The notes under the pieces were generated by a model that was given only the letters and a program-made list of their open reading frames with translations, made no database searches and was not told where the DNA came from. From Eledone cirrhosa (Eukaryota), in contig OZ024743.1 in NCBI GenBank assembly GCA_964016885.1, positions 56,172,001 through 56,236,000 of the forward strand: a DNA stretch of 64,000 nucleotides. The letters are read 5' to 3'. Made by a program: the position numbers and the translations under genes. This document shows, piece by piece, positions 875 through 55,479 of this stretch (positions are counted from its first letter, which is position 1; the number at the start of each line of letters is the position of its first letter).

Positions 875-1144
875 CTTAAATGGAAAAAATGAAATTTCAT
901 TTCTCACTCTTAGTACGGCTGATACTTAAATATAAGTATGTATACGTGCATACATATATGTATACAGACGTACAGTAGTATGTATATACATACATACATG
1001 CATGCACACATATATATATATGTACGTATGGGTTTATTGAACACTTATTATAATGTTCGGTTTGTTTGTAAACAAACAGCCCGAATTAAGCCGTACAGTG
1101 TTCGGCAACCATCGTTGCCCTTTTGTTCAACACTGACAAAGGAA

Positions 1145-1185
1145 CGATGAACTAGTTTCTAGCTTATTAGCTGTCATCAGCACCG
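1145..1185 (-). ncRNA. Type I minimal hammerhead ribozyme (inverted copy of 1298-1338)
   Basis: Exact reverse complement of 1298-1338, inside a ~69-bp inverted repeat (1122-1190 / 1293-1361). Confidence 0.75.
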
Positions 1186-1297: not shown

Positions 1298-1338
1298 CGG
1301 TGCTGATGACAGCTAATAAGCTAGAAACTAGTTCATCG
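1298..1338 (+). ncRNA. Type I minimal hammerhead ribozyme
   Basis: CGGTG CTGATGA cAGCT-aata-AGCTa GAAA C-TA-G TT CATCG; stem I CGGTG/CATCG; palindromic stem III AACTAGTT. Confidence 0.8.
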
Positions 1339-1364
1339 TTCCTTTGTCAGTGTTGAACAAATAG

Positions 1365-8374: not shown

Positions 8375-8869
8375 AAAAGTCAAACACAAATATAATATCA
8401 AAACTTTGTCACAAGAACATTAGGAGGATACATAATATGGCAGGCTAGATAAGCATAAGTATCAACATTTATATAAGATATTAGATAACAGATGCGGAAG
8501 AGGCATAAGGAGAATAGGAGCATATAAATGCAATAAAAATTAGGAGCATATAATTATAAAATATACTGCTATAGAAAGGTTAAGTACAGTGAAAAATTTA
8601 TATCATAAGCAGTAAAGAAAATTAATAAAGTTAATAAGAGGAGGCATGCAATTAAAATATAAATTTAAAACATACATCTCCAAAAAAAAATGTTTTTCAT
8701 TATGCATTCAAAAAATATATTTAATTATACATCTTAAAAAAAGTTCGCAAACTGTGCAAAATAGTTAATGTTGAGTAAATTGAATCATCAAAGTAAAAAG
8801 TCAAATATAGGATGAAACGACCGTAAGTGATTAAATGTTTTAAACACTCTTTGATTGTCATATATATAT

Positions 8870-9901
8870 GCTTACAGGCTTATGGAATCCCCAAGAGGAT
8901 AGTGGACCTGATATCACTGCTCTACACCAACACCAAAGCCCAAGTCATTACACCTGATGGGATGACAGAGTTCTTTGAGATACTGGCTGGAGTGCTCCAG
9001 GGAGATACATTGGCTCCCTACCTTTTTATCATCGTAGTGGACTATTGTATGCGCCTTTCACTGGAGAAACACCAGGACTCTGGCTTTACTGTAGCACCGG
9101 CTCAGAGCAGGAGAGTTAGGGCGAAAAAGGTATCGGCTGCTGAGTTTGCCGACATCATAGTTTTGGTGACAAATACAGTGAAGGAGGCAGAGGATTTGAT
9201 GCGGGAGGTTGAGACTGTGTCGATGAGTGTGGGGCTGAGAATGAATGAGACTAAAACAAAATATCTGGTAGAGAATGTTGAGAAGCCAGAGGGGATCACT
9301 AATGTAGGCGGGAAGCCGCTGGAATTGGTTGAGGACTTCCTGTATTTGGGAGCAAAGATTGGGAATACGGAAGATGATGTGGTTGAGAGGAAGAGCAAGG
9401 CCTGGGCGGCGTGCCACAGCTTGAGATCAGTGTGGAAGTCGGACCTTCGTAGAGACCTGAAAATCCGCCTCTTCATTGCTGTAGTGGAGTCTGTGCTGCT
9501 GTATGGGTCTAAGACTTGGACATTGACCAAGAAACTCACTCAGATGGTGGATGGGTGCTACACGAGAATGCTGAGGATGGCTCTGAACATTAATCAGTAT
9601 ACACTGAGGATGAAAAACTCAGAGCTGTATGGGAGCATCCCAAAAGTCAGCTCAAAAGTGACACAGAGGAGACTGAGGTTGGCTGGACATGCTCACCGAC
9701 ATCCAGAGTTGACATTGCACTCAGTGCTCCTTTGGGAGCCCCTACATGGACACACTAGAAGAGGAAGACCAAGGTTAACATATGTTGATGCCCTAAGGAC
9801 AGACACTGGTCTGTTGGAGATGCAGGATGTGGCAGCGATAATGAGGGACAGAGACCGCTGGAGAGAACTCGTCCATGGATCTCGGGAATTTTACCCGCCT
9901 T

Positions 9902-9903
<2 letters not shown>
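8870..9903 (+). mobile_element. 5'-truncated RTE-clade LINE (RT to C-terminus), open frame
   Basis: GVLQGDTLAPYLFIIVVDY, FADII, FLYLGA, VESVLLYG, RRLRLAGH, RRGRPRLTYVD; stop codon runs straight into (TA)n. Confidence 0.9.
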
Positions 9904-34764: not shown

Positions 34765-37700
34765 CTATAGCCTGATGTAGAGTGAAGGCCCATTCACACG
34801 GGCCATTCTCGCCACTTTCACCCATCTTTCATAGAAACGGCTGGGGTGCAGCACCTCTCTCTCCATCCTGATCCTTCTTCCGAAATGATATCGGAAGAAA
34901 CGGACCAGTTGTTGGCCAGAGAGAAAGGTGCCTGACCTCAGTCCTTTCAGACGCGTCCACCATACAACCTCTTTCGCCATGGCTATTACGCACAGAAACA
35001 CCGCCTCTGCTTCATCTTTGAAGGGGGGAGGCGGCTTGATCATTACAATAGACTCGGTGGTCAACCGGATCGGTCCCACCCTTGACAGCAGTTGTTCGAC
35101 ATAGCCCCACAGATCGGCTACGCCCGAGCAGTGTACCAATGCGTGTGCAACGGTTTCCTCGTCGCACACGCATCTGGGACAGATCTTTTTGGCGGGGTCC
35201 CTACCCGGGCGCCCGTGTCTGTAGAGCCTTTCTCGAACGGGTAAAGCCCCTCGGTAGCACTGCCAGGCCAGGGACTTCTGGAAGTTGTCCATAGGTCCCG
35301 GGCTGAATGTCCTACCGAACAGGCTGGCCAGTTCGTCCTCCTCCATGTCTAGGGCTTCTCCGAGGGCGTCGTCGCACCTGCTGCGTACCAGCCCTCTATA
35401 GAATGTTGCGGTGGAGTCTCCACTGATAACCGGATCCGCCTGCCAGAGGGCGGTGAGCGCCTGGGCACACTCAGTGTGCCAGGCGCCCAGTTTTCTCGGT
35501 CTTTGCTTGACCCAGGATTGCAGCTCGGTGAGTGAGACGAGTCTGGGAAAGGTTCGCCTCACAAACGAGGCCCACACCGGTTGTCCGGTGAGGAATACGT
35601 AGAGGTGCCGTAGCCTTAATGCGTGTTTACGCATCATTAGCCACGGCATCCCCAGCCCCCCTTTCGAAGGGTGTTGACAGCAGATGGATCTCCTCACCAT
35701 AGGAGCCCGCCTCTTCCAAAGGAATTGGAAGAGCGCGCGCTCCATCTTGGTGAGGGTTTCCCTTGGGCAGGGCACTACGGTCAGGCGGTAGTAGATGACG
35801 GACGCTATGTAGGTGTTCGCCACCTCCGCCCGACCTTTCAGGGATAGTTTGCAACTGGCCCACTTCTGGGTCAGTGCAAACACCCTGTTCGTAACCTCCG
35901 CCCAGTTTTTCTCCACCTGGAGGTCCGGTCCGAACCAGACCCCGAGCAACTTCACCGGGCCCTCCGTCCAGCGTCCGACGACGCCATCGGAGGGCATCGG
36001 TCTGCCCCTCCACGTGCCGAGTTGCAAACCGATTGACTTGTCCCGGTTCAGCTTAGCCCCTGTGAACTTTTCGTACTCCTCCAGTAAGGTGCCGACCGCC
36101 TCGATTTCGGAGGCCGTCGACACCATTACTGTCACGTCATCGGCGTAGGCCGACACCGCTTTCCGCAATCCCGGTTCCAAAGGGATGCCCTGCAACAACT
36201 CCAACTTCCGCAGTAGTGGCTCGAGAGTCAACACATACAGAAGGGAGGAGAGAGGGCACCCCTGTCGGATGGACCGCGCGATTTTGAACGGCTCCGAGAG
36301 GTAGCCGTTCACCTTGACCCTAGAGCAGATGCGGCTGCTGTGCATAGCAGTGATCCAGCCCCTGAAAACGGGTCCGAAGCCTGCCGCCGCTAGCACCGCA
36401 TCCAGGTAACCATGGTCGACCCTATCGAACGCCTTAGATTGATCCAAGTTGATCAGAGCCCCACCAAAGCCGGGTTCGTTCCCAACCCTCTCTATGATGT
36501 ATCGCATGAGGTGGAGGTTGTCATGGATGGACCTGGACGGGATAGCGCATGTCTGCGCATCTCCCACCAGGTTGCCCACGACAAGCGCCAACCTCTTTGC
36601 TAGCACCTTGGCCAAAATCTGTAACTCTGTATTTAGCAGAGTTATGGGCCTGAAGTTACTTATTTCGTCCCCCTTGTTCTCGTCCTTCCTCACTAGCGTG
36701 ACTACGCCCTTGGTCACAGTACAGGGAATTCTCCCGTTCTGTTGCCAGTTGCAGTAGACCGCCTCGAGGAGATCGGGGAACAAGTCCGGCATAGCTAGAT
36801 ATAATTCGTAAGGAAGACCATCGAGACCCAGGGATTTGCGTTTGCCGCATTGGCTCAGCACGTCCTCTATCTCAGCGGCCGAAATCGGCTCCTCGCAGGA
36901 CTTCGCCTCCCTGTCCGAGAGGCGCGGCAGGCCGTCGAGGTATGGACCGAAGTCCACGTTCCCAACCGGCTCCCCGCCCCTCCCGAACAGTCGGGCAAAG
37001 TGCCTTTGAAAGGCCTCACACATCTGCTTAGGCTCAAGAATCGCCCGTCCATCCAGGTCTCGCAAAGACCGGATGGTGGATTTAGTTCCACTGTTGGCCT
37101 CTGTCACGCGGGCCCAGCTAACAGCTTTGGTCCCCTCGTTCCCTAGAGCACGTATTTTACTTCGGACAACGCAGCCTTCGTGCTTCGCGTCGAAAAACTG
37201 GCTCAAAGCCGTTCTCGACGCTAGCACTCTGGCCACGTCGCCGCTTCTAATTGCCTCTTCTACTCTATCTATTAGCTCCCTTTCCTTCCTATTCCTATCC
37301 GCAGCTAGAACCTTACTAAATTCTATCGAGACTACTCTAATCTCTCTCTTTAGAGATACCCACCACCTGCTGTTGACGATCGCTCCAGTCAACCGTTCCT
37401 TAACTAACGTACTAATCCGATTCCTGTAGGCTCTACTTGCCGGCAAGGACAAGTTGAGCTTCCAGTAACCGGGGCCCTGTCTATGAGTTCTGTCAAGGTT
37501 GACCATGCAGGTCACTAATTTGTGGTCTGAATAGCCAACCATGCGCATTTTTGGACAACTTAAAAAGTCCTTATCCTTAATTCTAACTAAGAACCTATCT
37601 AGGTACGACCTAGATGATCCGCTACGATTTGCCCAAGTCCAGGTTGGCGCAGTCGGAAAATCTAGTCGATATCTATCGGCCAGGTCAAATCGACCGATTA

Positions 37701-38202
37701 ACCCTTTGAGGCTATTACACCCCTCTCTATCGGGGCAGGCCCCTACGTAGTCCCAGCGTGCATCTAGGATACCATTCCAGTCCCCCACTAATAGCAAGGA
37801 GCGGGACGTCCCCAGAAAAGTCTCCAGACGATGGAAGAAGTCCGGCCGCATTGACCCGAAAGGGCCGTAGGCGGCTACCAACCTAAACGCTCCGCCTTTA
37901 CCACTGCCAAGGTCCAGAACCACTAGTCGACCCTCCGGGTCCAAATGTACCATCTGTGTTGCGAGACCCAGATGTTTTTGCAGCAGAACGACAACTCCAC
38001 CCCCACCTCCGGGCTGACAGAGAGATGCGTGCATCTCAAAGTCATCAAAGGTGGGGGCCAGCTGTCGCACGTTGCTGATCCGGGCCTCGCAAATAACCAT
38101 CACATCTATACGTTGTGACCTGAGGTCATTTAGAAGCATTGCTTGCTTCCAAGTTGAGCCCAGGCCACGCGCATTTAAACAGCCTACTCTTAGCATAGCC
38201 AT
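34765..38202 (-). CDS. Tx1-like ORF2: APE endonuclease + reverse transcriptase + C-terminal Cys/His motif (~1145 aa from ATG)
   Basis: CLNARGL, GDWN, YLDRFL, SDHK, GPGYWKLN, NFRPITLLN, LDQSKAFDRVDH, IRQGCPLS, AYADDV, CPRC..EETVAHALVHC. Confidence 0.93.
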   Translation of the reverse strand: MAMLRVGCLNARGLGSTWKQAMLLNDLRSQRIDVMVICEARISNVRQLAPTFDDFEMHASLCQPGGGGGVVVLLQKHLGLATQMVHLDPEGRLVVLDLGSGKGGAFRLVAAYGPFGSMRPDFFHRLETFLGTSRSLLLVGDWNGILDARWDYVGACPDREGCNSLKGLIGRFDLADRYRLDFPTAPTWTWANRSGSSRSYLDRFLVRIKDKDFLSCPKMRMVGYSDHKLVTCMVNLDRTHRQGPGYWKLNLSLPASRAYRNRISTLVKERLTGAIVNSRWWVSLKREIRVVSIEFSKVLAADRNRKERELIDRVEEAIRSGDVARVLASRTALSQFFDAKHEGCVVRSKIRALGNEGTKAVSWARVTEANSGTKSTIRSLRDLDGRAILEPKQMCEAFQRHFARLFGRGGEPVGNVDFGPYLDGLPRLSDREAKSCEEPISAAEIEDVLSQCGKRKSLGLDGLPYELYLAMPDLFPDLLEAVYCNWQQNGRIPCTVTKGVVTLVRKDENKGDEISNFRPITLLNTELQILAKVLAKRLALVVGNLVGDAQTCAIPSRSIHDNLHLMRYIIERVGNEPGFGGALINLDQSKAFDRVDHGYLDAVLAAAGFGPVFRGWITAMHSSRICSRVKVNGYLSEPFKIARSIRQGCPLSSLLYVLTLEPLLRKLELLQGIPLEPGLRKAVSAYADDVTVMVSTASEIEAVGTLLEEYEKFTGAKLNRDKSIGLQLGTWRGRPMPSDGVVGRWTEGPVKLLGVWFGPDLQVEKNWAEVTNRVFALTQKWASCKLSLKGRAEVANTYIASVIYYRLTVVPCPRETLTKMERALFQFLWKRRAPMVRRSICCQHPSKGGLGMPWLMMRKHALRLRHLYVFLTGQPVWASFVRRTFPRLVSLTELQSWVKQRPRKLGAWHTECAQALTALWQADPVISGDSTATFYRGLVRSRCDDALGEALDMEEDELASLFGRTFSPGPMDNFQKSLAWQCYRGALPVRERLYRHGRPGRDPAKKICPRCVCDEETVAHALVHCSGVADLWGYVEQLLSRVGPIRLTTESIVMIKPPPPFKDEAEAVFLCVIAMAKEVVWWTRLKGLRSGTFLSGQQLVRFFRYHFGRRIRMEREVLHPSRFYERWVKVARMARVNGPSLYIRL

Positions 38203-38226
38203 GTTGGTGGTGAAGAGAAAAGGCAC

Positions 38227-39519
38227 TTACCTCTCTGCGTCCCGGGTATCGGGCTGCACAATTTCCATTAGGGTGGGGGATGGGTTGTTGGGTGGGGTGG
38301 TGGTTTGTGGAAGTGTGGGGGCATCAGTGTGTTGTGTGGTTGGGGAGCTTGGAGTTGTGTGGGTGTTTGGGGAGGGGGTGGGATAGTTTTTTAGGAGGAC
38401 GCGGTTAATGGGCCCGACGCAGGGGGGACCCACGTCCTCTTTAAAATTGTTTTTTAAAGTTTTATAGGTGTCCTGTGGGGCCTTAATCATTTTGAGGTGG
38501 GGGAAATCCCCTGCCTGGGTGAAGTTAGGCCCTTGTGTTTTTATTAGATTGTTGTTGTACACAATGTTTAACAGTTTTTTGTTTCTTGTGTTTATGTATG
38601 TGTATGCATGTTTTTGTTTTTGTGTGGTGTTTTTTGTTTGCTGTTGTGAGCTCTTTTGTGTTGGTGTCAGTGTTATGTTTTGGGGAGGGGTTTTTTTCAT
38701 TTGTGTGTCTGAGGTGTGTTTTCTTTTTTTTCTTTTGATTGTGTGGAAGTGCTCCTCCTCGTCTGACGACGAACTAGGGTCATCTTCCGCGTTGGAGGGG
38801 AGGGGTATATTTTCGGGTTGTGTTTGCGGTACGGGTGTTTTGGAAATTGTTTTTGTTTTTTGAGTGGAGGGGATGGGTTGGACATTGTTTTGTTTTGGTT
38901 TGAGCTGTGGTGGTTGTTTTTGTAGTGGTAGTTGTGGTGATTGTGTTGGTTGTGCAGTTGTTGGTGGTGTAGGCAGGATTGGGGTTTTCTTATTAAGTTG
39001 GGGACAGACAGCCCTCAGGTGACCTCTGGTTCCGCAGAGGTAACACGAGGGCCGTCTACCCTCAACGGTAATGTTGATGAAGGTTAGATCATCCAGTATG
39101 ACGCGTTCAGGGATCTGGGCGATCCTTTCGGGCCTCATTTGAACTACAAGTTCGAGGCTCGTTCCACTGAACGCGTCACCCGATGCCTTTCCCATGGACA
39201 CCAGCATGTCATCCTCCAGGTCCAGAAAACCTGTCAAAACCCACCATATGTCCATAATCGGCAGGATGGTGTGGATTTTTATTTTTTGTGTTCTTCTACC
39301 CATGTACGTAGGGTAGAAGGTGTATGCGGTGGATGTGATTGGTTTGATGGACAGTTTCACTGCTGTGTCCCTGTCCTTCATGAGAATGGATAGACTCCCG
39401 TAGAGTCTATCCTTCTGAATGAAGGTGATGTCCTTCATGACGTCTTTTAAAACCAGCTCTATCTCGCTCTGTGATGGTTGAGCTGGTTTTTTACTTTTGT
39501 TCGAGATTGTCCTAAACAT
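38227..39519 (-). CDS. Tx1-like ORF1, nucleic-acid-binding protein with CCHC knuckle (~430 aa from first ATG)
   Basis: CYLCGTRGHLRAVC knuckle, Pro/Gln/Thr-rich linker, KRKKRK; the ORF-track N-terminus (LSIY)n is flanking microsatellite. Confidence 0.85.
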   Translation of the reverse strand: MFRTISNKSKKPAQPSQSEIELVLKDVMKDITFIQKDRLYGSLSILMKDRDTAVKLSIKPITSTAYTFYPTYMGRRTQKIKIHTILPIMDIWWVLTGFLDLEDDMLVSMGKASGDAFSGTSLELVVQMRPERIAQIPERVILDDLTFINITVEGRRPSCYLCGTRGHLRAVCPQLNKKTPILPTPPTTAQPTQSPQLPLQKQPPQLKPKQNNVQPIPSTQKTKTISKTPVPQTQPENIPLPSNAEDDPSSSSDEEEHFHTIKRKKRKHTSDTQMKKTPPQNITLTPTQKSSQQQTKNTTQKQKHAYTYINTRNKKLLNIVYNNNLIKTQGPNFTQAGDFPHLKMIKAPQDTYKTLKNNFKEDVGPPCVGPINRVLLKNYPTPSPNTHTTPSSPTTQHTDAPTLPQTTTPPNNPSPTLMEIVQPDTRDAER

Positions 39520-39529
39520 GACCGTGTTT

Positions 39530-39609
<80 letters not shown>

Positions 39610-40104
39610 GGGGGGGAACAAGGAGGCAAAAGAAGCAAAAATAAGAAAAAGGTAAAACTTTTCTTTCCTATTGGAATATCTTGTTTATGTTTTGTAGATC
39701 CTTGACAATCTATTGCACCTCCAATCTCAGTAGCTTTTTTTAATTTTTTATAGACCAGCTTTAAAATGTTCTCTCTGTCTCAGACTGGTAGGTTTTACAT
39801 TAGAATTTAGATAGGAACCCTTTAAATAGGTAGTTTAGTTTCATAGAATCATGGGTGGTTTGAGGAGGTTTGCTATCAAAAAAGCATGATATACATTTGA
39901 TGCTTTTACTTACCACCATTTAAAAGGGAGCAGACAAAAAGTCAAACAACAAAAAACCAGAATGCTAATACCGGAAAAAAAGAAAGGCTGTTAACAACTC
40001 TATTTGTCGAAGTGTTACTCGATTTTAAAGAGAAAATATTATCAACTCGTGAGCAGAATTACTTGGCAATATTTTTGATTGATGATCGAAAATTGAATCA
40101 ATTT

Positions 40105-49298: not shown

Positions 49299-50846
49299 TC
49301 TATACTATAAAGCTGACGGCCGTATGTAGGTATCAAACATCCGCCAAACGGCTGGACCAAACAGCACCAAATTTGCACCATAGATGTAACTTTTTCCAAG
49401 TAAAAAAGTGAGGGAATTTTTGTCTACGGAATTTTGTTAAAAGATTAAAGACATTCGGTGAATTGGCAGTATGGGTAGAGGGTCGGACGCCATGCTTTCT
49501 AGCATAGTTACGTCTCTTTACAGTCTGAGTTCAAATCCCGCCGAGGTTAACTTTGCCTTTCATCCTTACGGGGTCGATAAAATAAAGTACCAGTAATGTA
49601 CTGGGTAATTGCTGGCCTTGTGCCTAAAGTAGAAACAATTATTTAAATATTCACTTCTTTAAAATTTCAGATGTCAACACTTCCTGTTATACGTCATTCC
49701 TCACTTTTTCTTATGATGTCTCACAACATTCCCCTCTTTTTCTTAGTCTTTCTTTTTAGATAGATACATAGCTATAACGTAGCGCCCTTATAAAATGTCT
49801 CTGTATGTCTGACTGTCTGCATTAGATAACGTTTTTCGAAATATTTACGTCTGCGTTCACAGACTGATTTTTTTAGTTACGGGTGAAGCAGCGATTCTTT
49901 GCTTAAACTTTAATGTTATTTTAATATATATATTCGTGTACAGATATTTTTGCATACACAAAAACAAAAACCTATTTATTTCACGAAAGCTCATTGTTAC
50001 TGTTCGAGGTTAGAGGACCACTCTTTCCAAGATCTGAGAACCATCAATGGCCATCAATGTTCCACTTACCGTTTGGCTTGCCAGATGCGTGGTATGTTAC
50101 ACTATGACAGCCATTGGCACCTCACCCTGCAAGAAGCAGCAACTGCTAAAGTCCCTTCTCAGCTGCGAAAACTTTTCGCCGACCCTCTCGCAATGTGGAA
50201 CAACCACCGCGAAAGTCTAGCTGAGGACATCCCCCACCGCACACGCAGACACAATCCGAACGTAACATACGATGTCGTTTTCAATGAGGCGCTCATTTGT
50301 CTTGGAAACAGTGTCCTGGAGATTGGTGGTTGGCCTCTAAGTCACTACAGCTTACCTGCTTCTGACAGGAGTGTCCAGAGGTCAAGGTCTACAGAGCTTC
50401 TTCGTGAGACGAGCTACGAAATCAGTGATTCTCCCATGGTCAATTGTATGTAGGATGCTCTCGGGTGAGCTCGCCAAACAATCTCTTCATCTTTTCTCCG
50501 GAGGGCCGAACAAAACATATTGTATACTCTGAGGCTCTAACAATGTAATTTAAATATTTTCTGTTACTTGGAATTTCCATTATGGTTCTACAAATTATTG
50601 TTTGTTAAAAAAGTTGTTCTCTGTTCAGCGTTTATTGTTGTAACTATCAATTTTCTTTAATGTACTGGCTACTGAACTGGGGAATCCTAAACACTATTCA
50701 AACCCAACATCAGAGCACGTAACCCCCCCCCCTCGTTGACCTGAGAGGGCGTGCGGTATCTTTGCACTGGAGTGGAGGGAGATTCCTGAAAATATAAAAT
50801 GCCGGTATACCTAGCCGAACGCCAGCCGAACGGGCCAGTGAGCTAT
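49299..50846 (+). mobile_element. Internally deleted Helitron containing a SINE and other inserts
   Basis: 5' A|TCTATACTATAAA; RepHel remnants SFQDLRTING..TYRLACQMRGML..W..TLQEAA..PSQLRKLF and FSHGQLYVGCSRV; 3' hairpin GCCaG-ccgaa-CGGGC followed by CTA. Confidence 0.8.
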
Positions 50847-51080
50847 ATATATTTCAAGGGTACCAAAACTTTGGTACGCCCTCATCAGATAAAATGCAAA
50901 GTTTATTTTATAAATATTGACATATCCAGGAACGAGACCTTAACGGTTCAAATTTTACCTATCCAGGTAAAACTTGAACCGTTAAGGTCTCGTTCCTGGA
51001 TATGTCAATATTTTTAAAACAAACTTTGTATTTTATCTGATGAGGGCGTACCAAAGTTTTGGTACCCTTGAAACATATAT
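50845..51080. repeat. ~236-bp near-perfect palindrome carrying a hammerhead core on each arm
   Basis: Centre ACCT-atcc-AGGT at 50957-50968; arms are reverse complements with few mismatches. Confidence 0.92.
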
Positions 51081-51086
51081 AATGGA
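51032..51086 (+). ncRNA. Type I hammerhead
   Basis: TTTAT CTGATGA GGGcGTACCAAA-gt-TTTGGTACCCTT GAAA (C/T)ATATA TA ATGGA, followed by ATAAA. Confidence 0.7.
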
Positions 51087-51454
51087 ATAAATATGGTTTT
51101 ATAAATATAGTTTCCATTTATTAATATCATTGATATTATACTCCAGAAAACCTGTCGAGTTCTTCGAATCAGTTATAAATATATATAATTGTTGAATTAC
51201 CAACAATTTAAATATCCCTTTGCTTATATATATATAGGAAAAGAATCAAGACCCCGACGGCAGAGCTCAAGCTGTTTCGACGGCTATTTCTGGACTAAAT
51301 TGGTCTAAATTGGTCTCAATTTAGTCCAGAAGTAGCCATCGAAACAGCTTGAGCTCTGCCATCGGGGTTTTGACTCTTTTCCTATTACCCACTCTACTAC
51401 CCAAAGTTCTCTGGTGCGTTATGGTCCCCCTGGTTCCTTACCACACTTCCTTCG

Positions 51455-51515
<61 letters not shown>

Positions 51516-51706
51516 AAAAGGTATGACGCCGACGGCAGAGCTCAAGCCGTTTCGACAGCTATTTCTGGACGTCCAGAAATAGCCGTCGAAACGGCTTGAG
51601 CTCTGCCATCGGGGTCATACATTTTCTTATTATCCACTCTACTACCCTAAGTATTGAATACTCTGGTGCGTTATGGTCCATCTGGTTCCTTACCACAATT
51701 CCTTCG

Positions 51707-51765
<59 letters not shown>

Positions 51766-52833
51766 TATACATATATATACATATAGATATAGATATTGAA
51801 AATTGCAAACTTGACTGTCACCACTGAATATGAACCTGAAGATTGCGAAAGCATGAAAGTACTTGTTCAATTAACATTTAACATTCTACCATAATATTTC
51901 ATTATAATATCATTATAATTCTAAAGGATTGTAAATAAAACGAGTAAATCAAAGTTGGAATTCCTTTTATTAATATAATCTACTATACACAATCATACAC
52001 ACCCGTTATATTTATATACATATATACACACACACACACATATATATATATGTAAATTCTGTAATATGTTTATATTTTTATAATTTTTGTAATGTTTAGA
52101 TAATATTTATTTATACCAATTGTATAAAAACTTGACCTCCGTCTGTTTTCTTACAACGGTATAGATATTTTTCCAGCACAATTTTTTCAACACAATTTAG
52201 TTCTGTATGATATTTTTTCTCACCCTGTGTGTAACTTTATATGATTTGTTAAGTTATATGCCAATATATTATAATATTGTTATTATAGTGTTATTGTAAT
52301 ACTTATATTGTTTGTGCAAATTGACCGGAGATTATAAATTATATAATTATATAGTATATTATATATTATATGTTTATTTTTACTCATTTCTTTATCATTT
52401 TATACTGTAAATAATATATGTATTATATTTTTATTTTTATTTTTATTTATATTTAAACTCTTAATAAGTGTTAGTTTGTGTTTGTATTGATGGATATGTG
52501 TATTGATATATATATATATATATATATGTACATATGTATATATATATATATGTATATTGGACCTTATAATATTATTATTATTATCATTATCAATTATATT
52601 ATATTATATTATATTATATTATATTATATTATATATAGTACTGTAATTCTCGCTTTATATCACCACTTGTGTTTAGTTTTAGTTTTTGCATTGTACTATA
52701 TTTGTAATATGGTTCAAAATGTTATTCACTTCCTTAGCAATTTTTACTTGATAATTTTCCTATGCTTTATTGTATGTATACTCCATATTCTTCTGAGTTT
52801 TTGGCTTGTATTGGCCGATAGTGCTTCTTATAG

Positions 52834-52887
52834 CTTTACTTGCCCTGATGAGTCCTTAATAGGACGAAACATTGTTGGCTAATAAAG
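52834..52887 (+). ncRNA. Type I minimal hammerhead ribozyme
   Basis: GCC CTGATGA GTCC-ttaata-GGAC GAAA C-att-G TT GGC; distal CTTTA/TAAAG pairing over AATAAA. Confidence 0.85.
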
Positions 52888-53057
52888 ACTTTTGATGTAT
52901 TGAAGGCTTCTTTGGTTTATTTTCATAAATATATATATATATATATATGAATGTATATATATATAGTGTATTTTGCAATACACTGTATACTTAATTAAAA
53001 GCATTTTGGAGACCTTACGCTATTGTTTTAAAGTATTGACTATGTCACTTACTTCTT

Positions 53058-53149
53058 TTTTCAGCAAACAAAGGGAGATAAGCTGACAGATCTCTGTTTC
53101 GTATTGTTGGTACTCCTCAGAGCTCACCACTCCCTTTGTTTGCTGAAAA
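53058..53149 (-). ncRNA. Type I hammerhead with a long perfect stem I extension
   Basis: Minus strand: TTTTCAGCAAACAAAGGGAG-tggtg-AGCT CTGAGGA GTA-ccaacaa-TAC GAAA CAGA-ga-TCTG TC AGCT-tat-CTCCCTTTGTTTGCTGAAAA. Confidence 0.88.
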
Positions 53150-53502
53150 TTATGAATGTTGGATTCTTATAGAATTCCAGTAATAATCAGGAACTGATTA
53201 TACAAAGCGGTTTCCGGTCAATAATTGAAAATTAGAATTGGTGCTCTGAAATAGCGATATATATATGAATGTATATATAGTGTATTATGCAATAAACTGT
53301 ATGCTTAATTAAAAGCATTTTGAAGACCTTACATTCATATATATATTGCTATTTCATATATGAAAAAAGAAGTAAATGACATAGTCACTACTTTAAAACA
53401 ATAGCGTAAAGTCTTCAAAATGCTTTTAATTAAGCATACAGTGTATTGCGAAATCCACTATATATACATTCATATATATATATCGCTATTTCAGAGCACC
53501 AA

Positions 53503-53567
<65 letters not shown>

Positions 53568-53821
53568 CGAAGGAAATGTGGTAAGGAACCAGGTGGACCA
53601 TAACGCATCAATACTTAGGGTAGTAGAGAGGGTAATAGGAATGAGTAGGACCCCGACGGCTGAGCTCAAGCCGTTTCGACGGCTAATTCTGGACGCAGAA
53701 TTAGCCGTCGGGGTCCTACTCGTTCCTATATATATATATATATATATATAGGAACGAGTAGGACCCCGACGGGTAATTCTGGTAAATATATATATATATT
53801 TACATACACACATATATATAT

Positions 53822-55479
<1,658 letters not shown>

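Follow-up and report, generated by a model that had tools for sequence, protein, structure and literature searches.

A probable type I hammerhead ribozyme in a dispersed 319-nt repeat of Eledone cirrhosa with a Penelope-type insertion footprint

In a 64,000-nucleotide stretch of the Eledone cirrhosa genome (assembly GCA_964016885.1, contig OZ024743.1, positions 56,172,001 to 56,236,000 of the forward strand; hereafter the window, with positions counted from its first letter), the minus strand of positions 53058-53149 can be drawn as a hammerhead ribozyme standing on a long perfect helix. Two questions arise from this locus: whether the hairpin is a self-cleaving RNA, and what kind of element carries it. 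We consider it probable that the hairpin is a type I hammerhead within a 319-nt non-coding repeat that is likely copied from RNA by the enzymes of Penelope-like elements (PLEs), with the cut predicted between positions 53085 and 53084. The 319-nt element itself is most likely a retrozyme without long terminal repeats (LTRs), that is, a non-autonomous, PLE-dependent retroelement bearing a type I hammerhead.

The hairpin and its fold

A complete type I hammerhead layout is found on the minus strand of 53058-53149, capping a perfect 20-bp helix. Its parts are given below in window coordinates, with u denoting positions in the 319-nt unit, which we numbered in ribozyme sense from u1 (53256) to u319 (52938).

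53058-53149, minus strand: whole hammerhead hairpin, equal to unit positions u108-u199
53149-53130 with 53077-53058, minus strand: perfect 20-bp helix, TTTTCAGCAAACAAAGGGAG paired with CTCCCTTTGTTTGCTGAAAA
53129-53125 facing 53080-53078, minus strand: internal loop, TGGTG opposite TAT
53124-53121 with 53084-53081, minus strand: proximal stem I, AGCT paired with AGCT
53114-53120, minus strand: core box CUGAGGA (C3 U4 G5 A6 G7 G8 A9)
53101-53113, minus strand: stem II and loop II, GTA/TAC around CCAACAA, 3 bp in the window copy
53100-53097, minus strand: GAAA, which includes G12 A13 A14
53097-53086, minus strand: stem III, A-CAGA ga TCTG-T, with A15.1-U16.1, C-G, A-U and G-C pairs and the loop AGAU
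53085/53084, minus strand: predicted self-cleavage site, after C17 (53085) and before A1.1 (53084), placed by hammerhead numbering

The conserved core of a type I hammerhead (C3 U4 G5 A6 N7 G8 A9, G12 A13 A14, A15.1-U16.1 and an H17 that is not G) is fully present over 53120-53085 of the minus strand, and both the descriptor match described below and RNAfold surround it with three helices, helix I being open-ended and the other two capped by loops. A preliminary description of this locus, made from its letters only, had given these coordinates and elements, and every one of them proved correct when the minus strand was read and matched to a strict descriptor. Some of its qualifiers need correction. 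The stem III that it called stable does exist, but as 4 bp closed by a tetraloop, because a 2-nt loop cannot close. It also likened the layout to that of fast type I hammerheads, in which loops I and II make a tertiary contact; here helix I has an internal loop or bulge and loop II has 5-7 nt, but the proximal stem I has either 4 bp, or 7 bp and a bulge, where canonical animal type I hammerheads have 6 bp (PMC4209133), and the loop letters are also unlike the canonical pattern. It had further ranked this copy as the best candidate, whereas an A at 53104 costs the copy one pair of stem II and leaves it with three; in its subfamily (subfamily A, described below), G stands there in 35 of the 38 further distinct copies, and the majority stem II of that subfamily is the 4-bp GUAC-CAACA-GUAC. 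The window copy also has G at 53125, where all 40 aligned copies have A. When contigs from three sequencing runs of unknown kind and from one sample, which carry no information on RNA ends, strand or expression, were aligned to the window, they agreed with the family letters at both 53104 and 53125 (at 53104, T>C on the plus strand in nearly all contig depth) and hinted at variants within the core.

Because the loose pattern CTGANGA...GAAA...TH is common in the window (92 overlapping matches against 6.4 expected), we wrote a strict type I descriptor that calls for a stem I of at least 4 bp, a stem II of at least 3 bp, a stem III of at least 3 bp including A15.1-U16.1, and an H17 other than G. 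Its sole match on both strands of the 64-kb window is 53058-53149, and it found no match in 200 dinucleotide-preserving shuffles. Folding a 100-nt stretch with RNAfold gave a minimum free energy (MFE) structure of -40.5 kcal/mol (z -6.7) that retains the three-way junction, with a 2-nt bulge and a 7-bp stem I drawn in the window copy instead of the 5/3 internal loop. The hammerhead fold lies within 0.4-0.5 kcal/mol of the MFE both in the window copy and in a typical copy of subfamily A, and the circular fold of the whole 319-nt unit (-84.8 kcal/mol, z -8.1) retains the hammerhead junction in the sense strand. MicroRNA-like Rfam matches on the hairpin (mir-6511, MIR9563 and others, at 15-23 bits against gathering scores of 87-90) were rejected as generic hairpin matches.

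Repeat family, sister lineages and covariation

Homology among copies sets the length of the repeat unit at 319 nt. The unit is dispersed, AT-rich (GC 0.32) and non-coding, with no open frame of at least 150 amino acids overlapping it, and it fits the description of a retrozyme as a 150-450-bp, low-GC, non-coding unit without LTRs, no search having been made for a primer-binding site or a polypurine tract. In the host genome (3.0 Gb, 1,796 contigs), the 131 bases around the hairpin returned 2,354 first-look candidates, and the 46 matches that were scored, spread over many contigs, are 92-100% identical to them. The copies form three lineages that differ by about 20%. Subfamily A includes the window copy, subfamily B was reached through an 80%-identical copy in a PLE locus (1,993 first-look candidates), and subfamily C was reached through a variant in locus L040 together with the loose ends of the aligned contigs. 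Exact patterns of core and stem II, for which every reversed control gave 0, count 99 genome copies of subfamily A (97 + 2), 322 of subfamily B and 1,257 of subfamily C, and the window copy is thus a member of the smallest of three sister lineages. A conserved 28-nt piece of the unit had 0 matches in a metagenome scan, and a literature search by topic words, not by sequence and hence saying nothing on prior publication, found no paper naming the 319-nt family.

We counted the hammerhead structure on an alignment of 73 distinct A and B copies. Paired letters fill 93.4% of the cells, compared with 44-55% when the partners are slid by 1-3 columns, and 12 of the 32 pairs change on both sides. Compensatory changes between A and B are found in stem II (UA for CG, in 39 and 33 copies; AU for GC, in 39 and 31) and at four pairs of the long helix, which is the distal part of helix I, while G10.1-C11.1 has become A-U in 2 A copies, with 4 others showing the first change only. 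When all three subfamilies are compared, their majority letters are identical at U4, G5, A6, A9, G12, A13, A14, A15.1 and U16.1. Variation is found at N7 (G, U and U in A, B and C) and H17 (C, U and C), both of which the motif permits, and at positions 3 and 8, which hold C3-G8 in A and B but U3-A8 in C. This is the catalytic tertiary Watson-Crick pair, formed only in the active hammerhead fold, and its joint change is the most telling of these comparisons. Exact genome counts in the same sequence context gave 1,257 copies with U3-A8, 99 with C3-G8, 13 with U3-G8 and 11 with C3-A8, so that the mismatched combinations amount to 24 of 1,380; these bear the loop of one or the other family and can be accounted for in number by single hits on copies already present. 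Covariation to U3-A8 is also reported for PLE hammerheads of Schistosoma mansoni (PMC4209133). With only three lineages, the changes amount to few evolutionary events, yet they appear exactly where a working hammerhead would tolerate them.

Other variation in the family was noted along the way. On the ribozyme-sense strand of family A, purine transitions exceed pyrimidine transitions overall (143 against 78, with shared variants counted repeatedly) and in the 20-bp helix (u108-127 and u180-199; 51 against 14), and variants such as AA to GG make G-U pairs in sense RNA and C-A mismatches in antisense RNA. This excess fits either adenosine-to-inosine editing of an RNA intermediate or tolerance of G-U pairs. 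One subfamily B copy (L070:1880-1971) has a loop inversion inside the palindrome: its core, stem II and GAAA, enclosed by the two arms of the long helix, read on the other strand. Elsewhere, four exact 40-nt cores of subfamily A lie on the same strand about 44 kb apart (G000:C2:338330079, 338374305, 338418272 and 338463040), a spacing that suggests a large tandem segmental duplication carrying the element.

Insertion architecture, proposed mechanism and rival explanations

A four-unit query aligned to 29 loci including the window (the duplicate L011 was dropped) resolved 52 pieces. In ribozyme sense, 23 of the 3' ends fall at u310-319 and 21 at u20-36, leaving 8 elsewhere, so that 44 of the 52 pieces end at one of two points about 26-36 nt apart. 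The 5' ends are distributed evenly along the unit, with 7 of 52 loosely grouped where the helix has its foot (u171-198). It is the 3' end, read in ribozyme sense, that the copies have in common, so the RNA that was copied was of the hammerhead-bearing polarity. Eighteen pieces exceed one unit (338-850 nt), the longest of them reaching 2.7 units (L030); one complete ribozyme is present in 36 pieces, none in 15 and three in 1. Of the adjacent pairs, 20 are head-to-head and 0 tail-to-tail, and inverted pairs have the -/+ order in 12 of 12 cases among the first 100 C matches listed and in 9 of 9 among the 97 A matches, the C loci having the same architecture. A (TA)n tract of at least 3 units directly follows 28 of the 44 clustered 3' ends, and target-site duplications are not resolvable in such flanks.

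This architecture agrees point for point with the footprint published for PLEs, whose copies are described as strongly 5'-truncated, as forming partial tandems, as having on their 5' side a further copy that is inverted and itself 5'-truncated, as carrying a tail of 30-40 bp in some cases and as lying preferentially in (TA)n (PMC8557442). The tail of PLEs has been traced to a reverse transcriptase that starts at two neighbouring internal sites, and their endonuclease is described as preferring AT-rich DNA (PMC11167929). We infer that the two 3' clusters of the 319-nt element are likewise two adjacent reverse-transcription start sites. PLEs are abundant in the host genome and co-occur with the repeat: a GIY-YIG search gave 10,597 first-look candidates, all 150 of the 150 that were scored exceeded the Pfam cut-off, and one frame of 938 amino acids has GIY-YIG above the cut-off and RVT_1 just below it (28.0 bits against 29.6). 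At one such locus (L032, G000:C1:267122449-267125712) the PLE coding sequence consists of two 5'-truncated copies arranged head-to-head; subfamily B units lie about 660 nt past the end of its reading frame. Unit copies are found in 2 of the 11 PLE loci studied (L032 and L040), above the family's expected genome share, and a relaxed descriptor applied to the 11 loci gave two implausible matches only.

The proposed cycle would begin at master loci with at least two units, transcribed in ribozyme sense into a multimer that the hammerheads would cleave to 319-nt monomers. With its 24-27 bp, stem I would hold the ends of a monomer together as a nicked helix, predicted to be a good ligase substrate, and a cellular RNA ligase, or the ribozyme itself, would close the monomer into a circle. 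A PLE endonuclease would nick AT-rich or (TA)n DNA, and the PLE reverse transcriptase would start at about u319 or about u26 and copy a variable distance, sometimes beyond one round; the expected outcome is 5'-truncated partial tandems, head-to-head inverted twins and a tail of 26-36 nt. The template was either uncut or re-joined, because many pieces cross the cleavage site unbroken and 18 of 52 exceed one unit. We take the retrozyme cycle as the best model because the unit is small, of GC 0.32 and strongly self-paired, like the units of animal non-LTR retrozymes; the uninterrupted pieces and the 24-27-bp stem I agree with such a cycle without proving it. A bolder version, which we put forward tentatively and regard as doubtful, is that a PLE enzyme copies hammerhead-closed circles from two fixed starts on both sides of a (TA)n break, and that the U3-A8 lineage has outmultiplied the C3-G8 lineages about 3-13-fold (1,257 against 322 and 99), so that a tuned-down or differently regulated ribozyme would spread best.

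A number of results weigh against a PLE-copied hammerhead. Searches with Rfam gave no match in the window at the gathering score, and none of its hammerhead models (clan CL00010) matched 53058-53149 even at E<=10. A typical A copy reaches 14.0 bits for Hammerhead_1 (RF00163, gathering score 34) and a typical B copy 13.2 bits for HH9 (RF02275, gathering score 52). The assignment as a putative hammerhead rests on the descriptor and on comparative evidence, while the curated models do not recognise it. In the MFE structures of typical A, B and C copies an alternative CUCUG/CAGAG helix replaces stems I and III, and the hammerhead fold costs +0.5 (A), +3.9 (B) and +2.9 kcal/mol (C) over the MFE; by these models it is reachable, yet not the predicted ground state in B and C. 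Stem III and most of the proximal stem I are nearly invariant in the 73 copies, which makes covariation uninformative there, and the compensatory changes split just three lineages and thus represent a handful of events, not hundreds. Subfamily B also has mismatches, U-U in the basal pair of stem II and C-U at one position of the long helix, and its stem III is 3 bp with a 3-nt loop.

The genomic record holds further points of this kind. The aligned loci were those that match the ribozyme region with the highest scores, and hence form a biased sample. Long arrays are rare, at least two complete ribozymes being present in only 1 of 52 pieces, and no long array was seen in a non-exhaustive search; an exact-core direct pair of subfamily A at C2:109.07 Mb turned out to be just about 1.5 units and a tail, not a long array. 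Direct pairs 317-321 nt apart are few (5 among the first 100 listed C cores and 2 among the 97 A cores), and the window locus has a single ribozyme. With blastn, the unit showed no similarity to the 11 PLE loci except for the inserted copies in L032 and L040, although PLEs in this genome are very numerous and diverse, so that 11 loci sample few of them and may simply miss the partner. PLE coding sequence stands beside units in 0 of 20 C loci and in just 3 of 59 A/B loci (L020, L002, which is weak, and L042).

Some of these results would be expected if the motif were no ribozyme, or a different kind of ribozyme. It seems highly improbable that the pattern is a chance resemblance to a hammerhead in the inverted-repeat loop of a short interspersed element (SINE), a miniature inverted-repeat transposable element (MITE) or a foldback DNA element. 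The 92 overlapping loose matches in the window, the lack of a significant Rfam match and the palindromic context beside (TA)n and other palindromic repeats would all suit such an origin, but the full motif occurs in 0 of 200 shuffles and is conserved with covariation between subfamilies. The copies, moreover, do not have the two intact ends of a DNA transposon, one end being common and the other truncated, and partial tandems of more than one unit with a two-site tail are foreign to SINEs and MITEs, judging by the account of such footprints in PMC8557442. We also think it unlikely that the hairpin has been retained for another role, such as recognition or stalling of the reverse transcriptase or the supply of double-stranded RNA to editing or small-RNA pathways, with the ribozyme being a non-cutting relic of a PLE terminal repeat. 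That all invariant core letters are retained in three lineages about 20% apart whose stem II has been remodelled is hard to reconcile with a relic, as is the joint change of positions 3 and 8 (1,356 Watson-Crick against 24 mismatched); G8 lies in the internal loop of the alternative hairpin, where it has no partner to compensate a change from G to A. Such a role is nevertheless in keeping with the MFE of typical copies being an extended hairpin and not the hammerhead junction, with the non-standard U3-A8 core of the most prolific subfamily, with the 5' ends near the helix foot, as if the helix stalled reverse transcription, and with the enrichment of sense-strand purine transitions in the 20-bp helix, which agrees with editing of double-stranded RNA.

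The motif could also be real and selected, but active only as a dimer in multimeric transcripts, like newt satellite 2 and the minimal hammerheads of PLEs. Two adjacent motifs would then join through self-complementary segments of helix III into one extended helix, and the hairpin would not be the monomeric ribozyme of the preliminary description. We assign this a low probability. It draws on the shortness of helix III and its self-complementary segments (AGAUCU in A and a full 12-nt palindrome, ACAGAGCUCUGU, in C), on the 3 bp and 3-nt loop to which stem III is reduced in B, and on the description of animal type I hammerheads as motifs that usually act as dimers, helix III being short and its loop palindromic (PMC4209133, PMC7229834). 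In constrained folds, however, the 4-bp helix III with its tetraloop forms at small cost in A and C, where it is longer than the 1-2 bp given for dimer-dependent amphibian motifs (PMC7229834), and 36 of the 52 genomic pieces contain a single ribozyme. A type I hammerhead in a non-coding repeat copied by PLE enzymes remains the explanation that we prefer.

The window locus and relation to known systems

At the window locus itself, two pieces of the element meet head-to-head between two (TA)n tracts:

52938-53332, minus strand: retroelement piece 1 (400 nt or 1.25 units), in which a unit truncated at its 5' side and starting at u239 runs into a complete one that ends at u319 in (TA)n
53361-53509, plus strand: retroelement piece 2, inverted and 5'-truncated, u194 to u26, 152 nt, head-to-head with piece 1
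53333-53360, no strand: junction filler of 28 nt, holding a short sense-oriented scrap of the unit boundary
52916-52950, no strand: (TA)n tract, the common 3' end point of piece 1 and a neighbouring element
53508-53570, no strand: (TA)n tract flanking the 3' end of piece 2

Piece 2 begins, at its 5' side, at the helix foot and closes at its 3' side with a 26-nt tail, and the filler between the pieces may be the scar of a template switch. The preliminary description had reported a repeat that restarts directly and is then inverted, and this layout was recovered: a direct repeat (52943-53018 and 53257-53332, 89% identical and 314 apart) restarts at 53257, and inverted arms (52941-53063 and 53361-53483) are 91% complementary. 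It had interpreted the whole as a retrozyme-like unit of about 320 nt and had looked to multimeric genomic copies, which do exist (2.7 units in L030, and the direct pairs 317-321 nt apart). The genome-wide copies, the covariation and the footprint of retrotransposition in ribozyme sense speak for such a unit, while the copies are mostly partial tandems and inverted pairs and not long arrays. Since the window locus has one ribozyme, it would not release unit-length RNA on its own. We propose that the window copy is a dead-end insertion product, with one ribozyme whose stem II is weakened.

The sequence around the element is rich in other repeats. A neighbouring repeat at 52051-52925 (plus strand, about 880 nt) is very young, with copies 98-100% identical and 1,715 first-look candidates; these copies are 5'-truncated and head-to-head inverted, and the 3' end in the window lies on the same (TA)n tract as piece 1. 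Near that 3' end, at 52829-52899, is a minimal hammerhead-like motif, CTGATGA-GTCC..GGAC-GAAAC, almost without helix III, which scores 29.1 bits with Rfam HH9 against a gathering score of 52. The 3' ends of two ribozyme-bearing elements thus abut at a single (TA)n tract. At 53697-53781, and also at 51511-51700 and 53571-53695, lies a palindromic repeat whose arms (GGACCCCGACGG...) enclose a (TA)n tract; it gives strong but spurious Rfam microRNA matches (up to 60.8 bits, below gathering). Inverted copies of these arms bracket the entire cluster of ribozyme elements, and the same sequence flanks the unit in L030. Further CTGANGA...GAAA motifs with a stem II hairpin, several of them in inverted pairs, lie at 1129-1180 (minus), 1303-1354 (plus), 24549-24580 (minus), 25220-25283 (minus), 26097-26153 (plus), 50828-50888 (minus), 51037-51103 (plus), 54045-54104 (minus) and 55146-55205 (plus). 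None of them passes the strict type I descriptor, and they may be minimal hammerheads of the PLE type. The window also includes a frame of 1,153 amino acids at 34765-39684 (minus) of the long interspersed element (LINE) type, with Exo_endo_phos and reverse transcriptase above the Pfam cut-offs and zf-RVT just below; a 485-amino-acid frame with no Pfam match precedes it, and a separate reverse-transcriptase fragment lies at 8827-9903 (plus).

The dependence of retrozymes on PLEs has so far been argued mainly from co-occurrence and sequence similarity, and to this the 319-nt family adds a non-coding unit whose insertion footprint is clearly of the Penelope type. Across three sister lineages nature has varied the core (C3-G8 or U3-A8), stem II and helix III of its ribozyme, which makes it testable what level of ribozyme activity is needed for spread and whether the template is a circle. 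For annotation, the family is a case that curated hammerhead models miss entirely.

Metazoan non-LTR retrozymes are described as small, AT-rich, non-coding units of 150-450 bp with a type I hammerhead (Cervera and de la Pena 2020, PMC7229834), and the 319-nt family resembles them, as that account presents them, in its thousands of genomic copies, in the presence of PLEs in the same genome and in a strongly self-paired unit RNA. Monomers and short multimers dominate, as in most retrozyme families of a recent preprint, which reports that 75% of families have at most seven units and that the share of monomers ranges from 0 to 1 (Li, Clavereau and Pollet 2026, 10.64898/2026.07.22.740005). Unlike metazoan retrozymes, the family as seen here has no long head-to-tail arrays, its ribozyme tops a 20-bp perfect helix, the proximal stem I has 4 bp instead of 6, and the largest subfamily has a U3-A8 core.

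PLEs share with the family 5' truncation, partial tandems, head-to-head inverted copies, a tail between two 3' ends and (TA)n or AT-rich targets, as set out by Craig et al. (2021, PMC8557442) and Frangieh et al. (2024, PMC11167929), and their hammerheads are likewise described as having U3-A8 for C3-G8 in some motifs and a self-complementary helix III (Cervera and de la Pena 2014, PMC4209133). In contrast to PLEs, the 319-nt element has no reading frame and no similarity to the termini of the 11 PLE loci, and in contrast to the minimal PLE motifs that are described as lacking helix III (PMC4209133), the window hammerhead has a 4-bp helix III. Satellite 2 of newts and salamanders and Sm-alpha of Schistosoma (RF00163) are comparable in their type I topology, in a repeat of about 330 nt and in an internally looped extension of helix I (PMC6155905, PMC7229834), and these repeats are reported by the same sources to be transcribed as non-coding RNA. 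The 319-nt family differs from both in having no satellite-like array, in scoring 14.0 bits against the RF00163 gathering score of 34 and in loop letters among which the conserved ones of the tertiary contact are not recognisable, and its helix III is longer than that of the amphibian motifs. The hammerhead retrozyme class is already known, and the 319-nt family adds a member to it.

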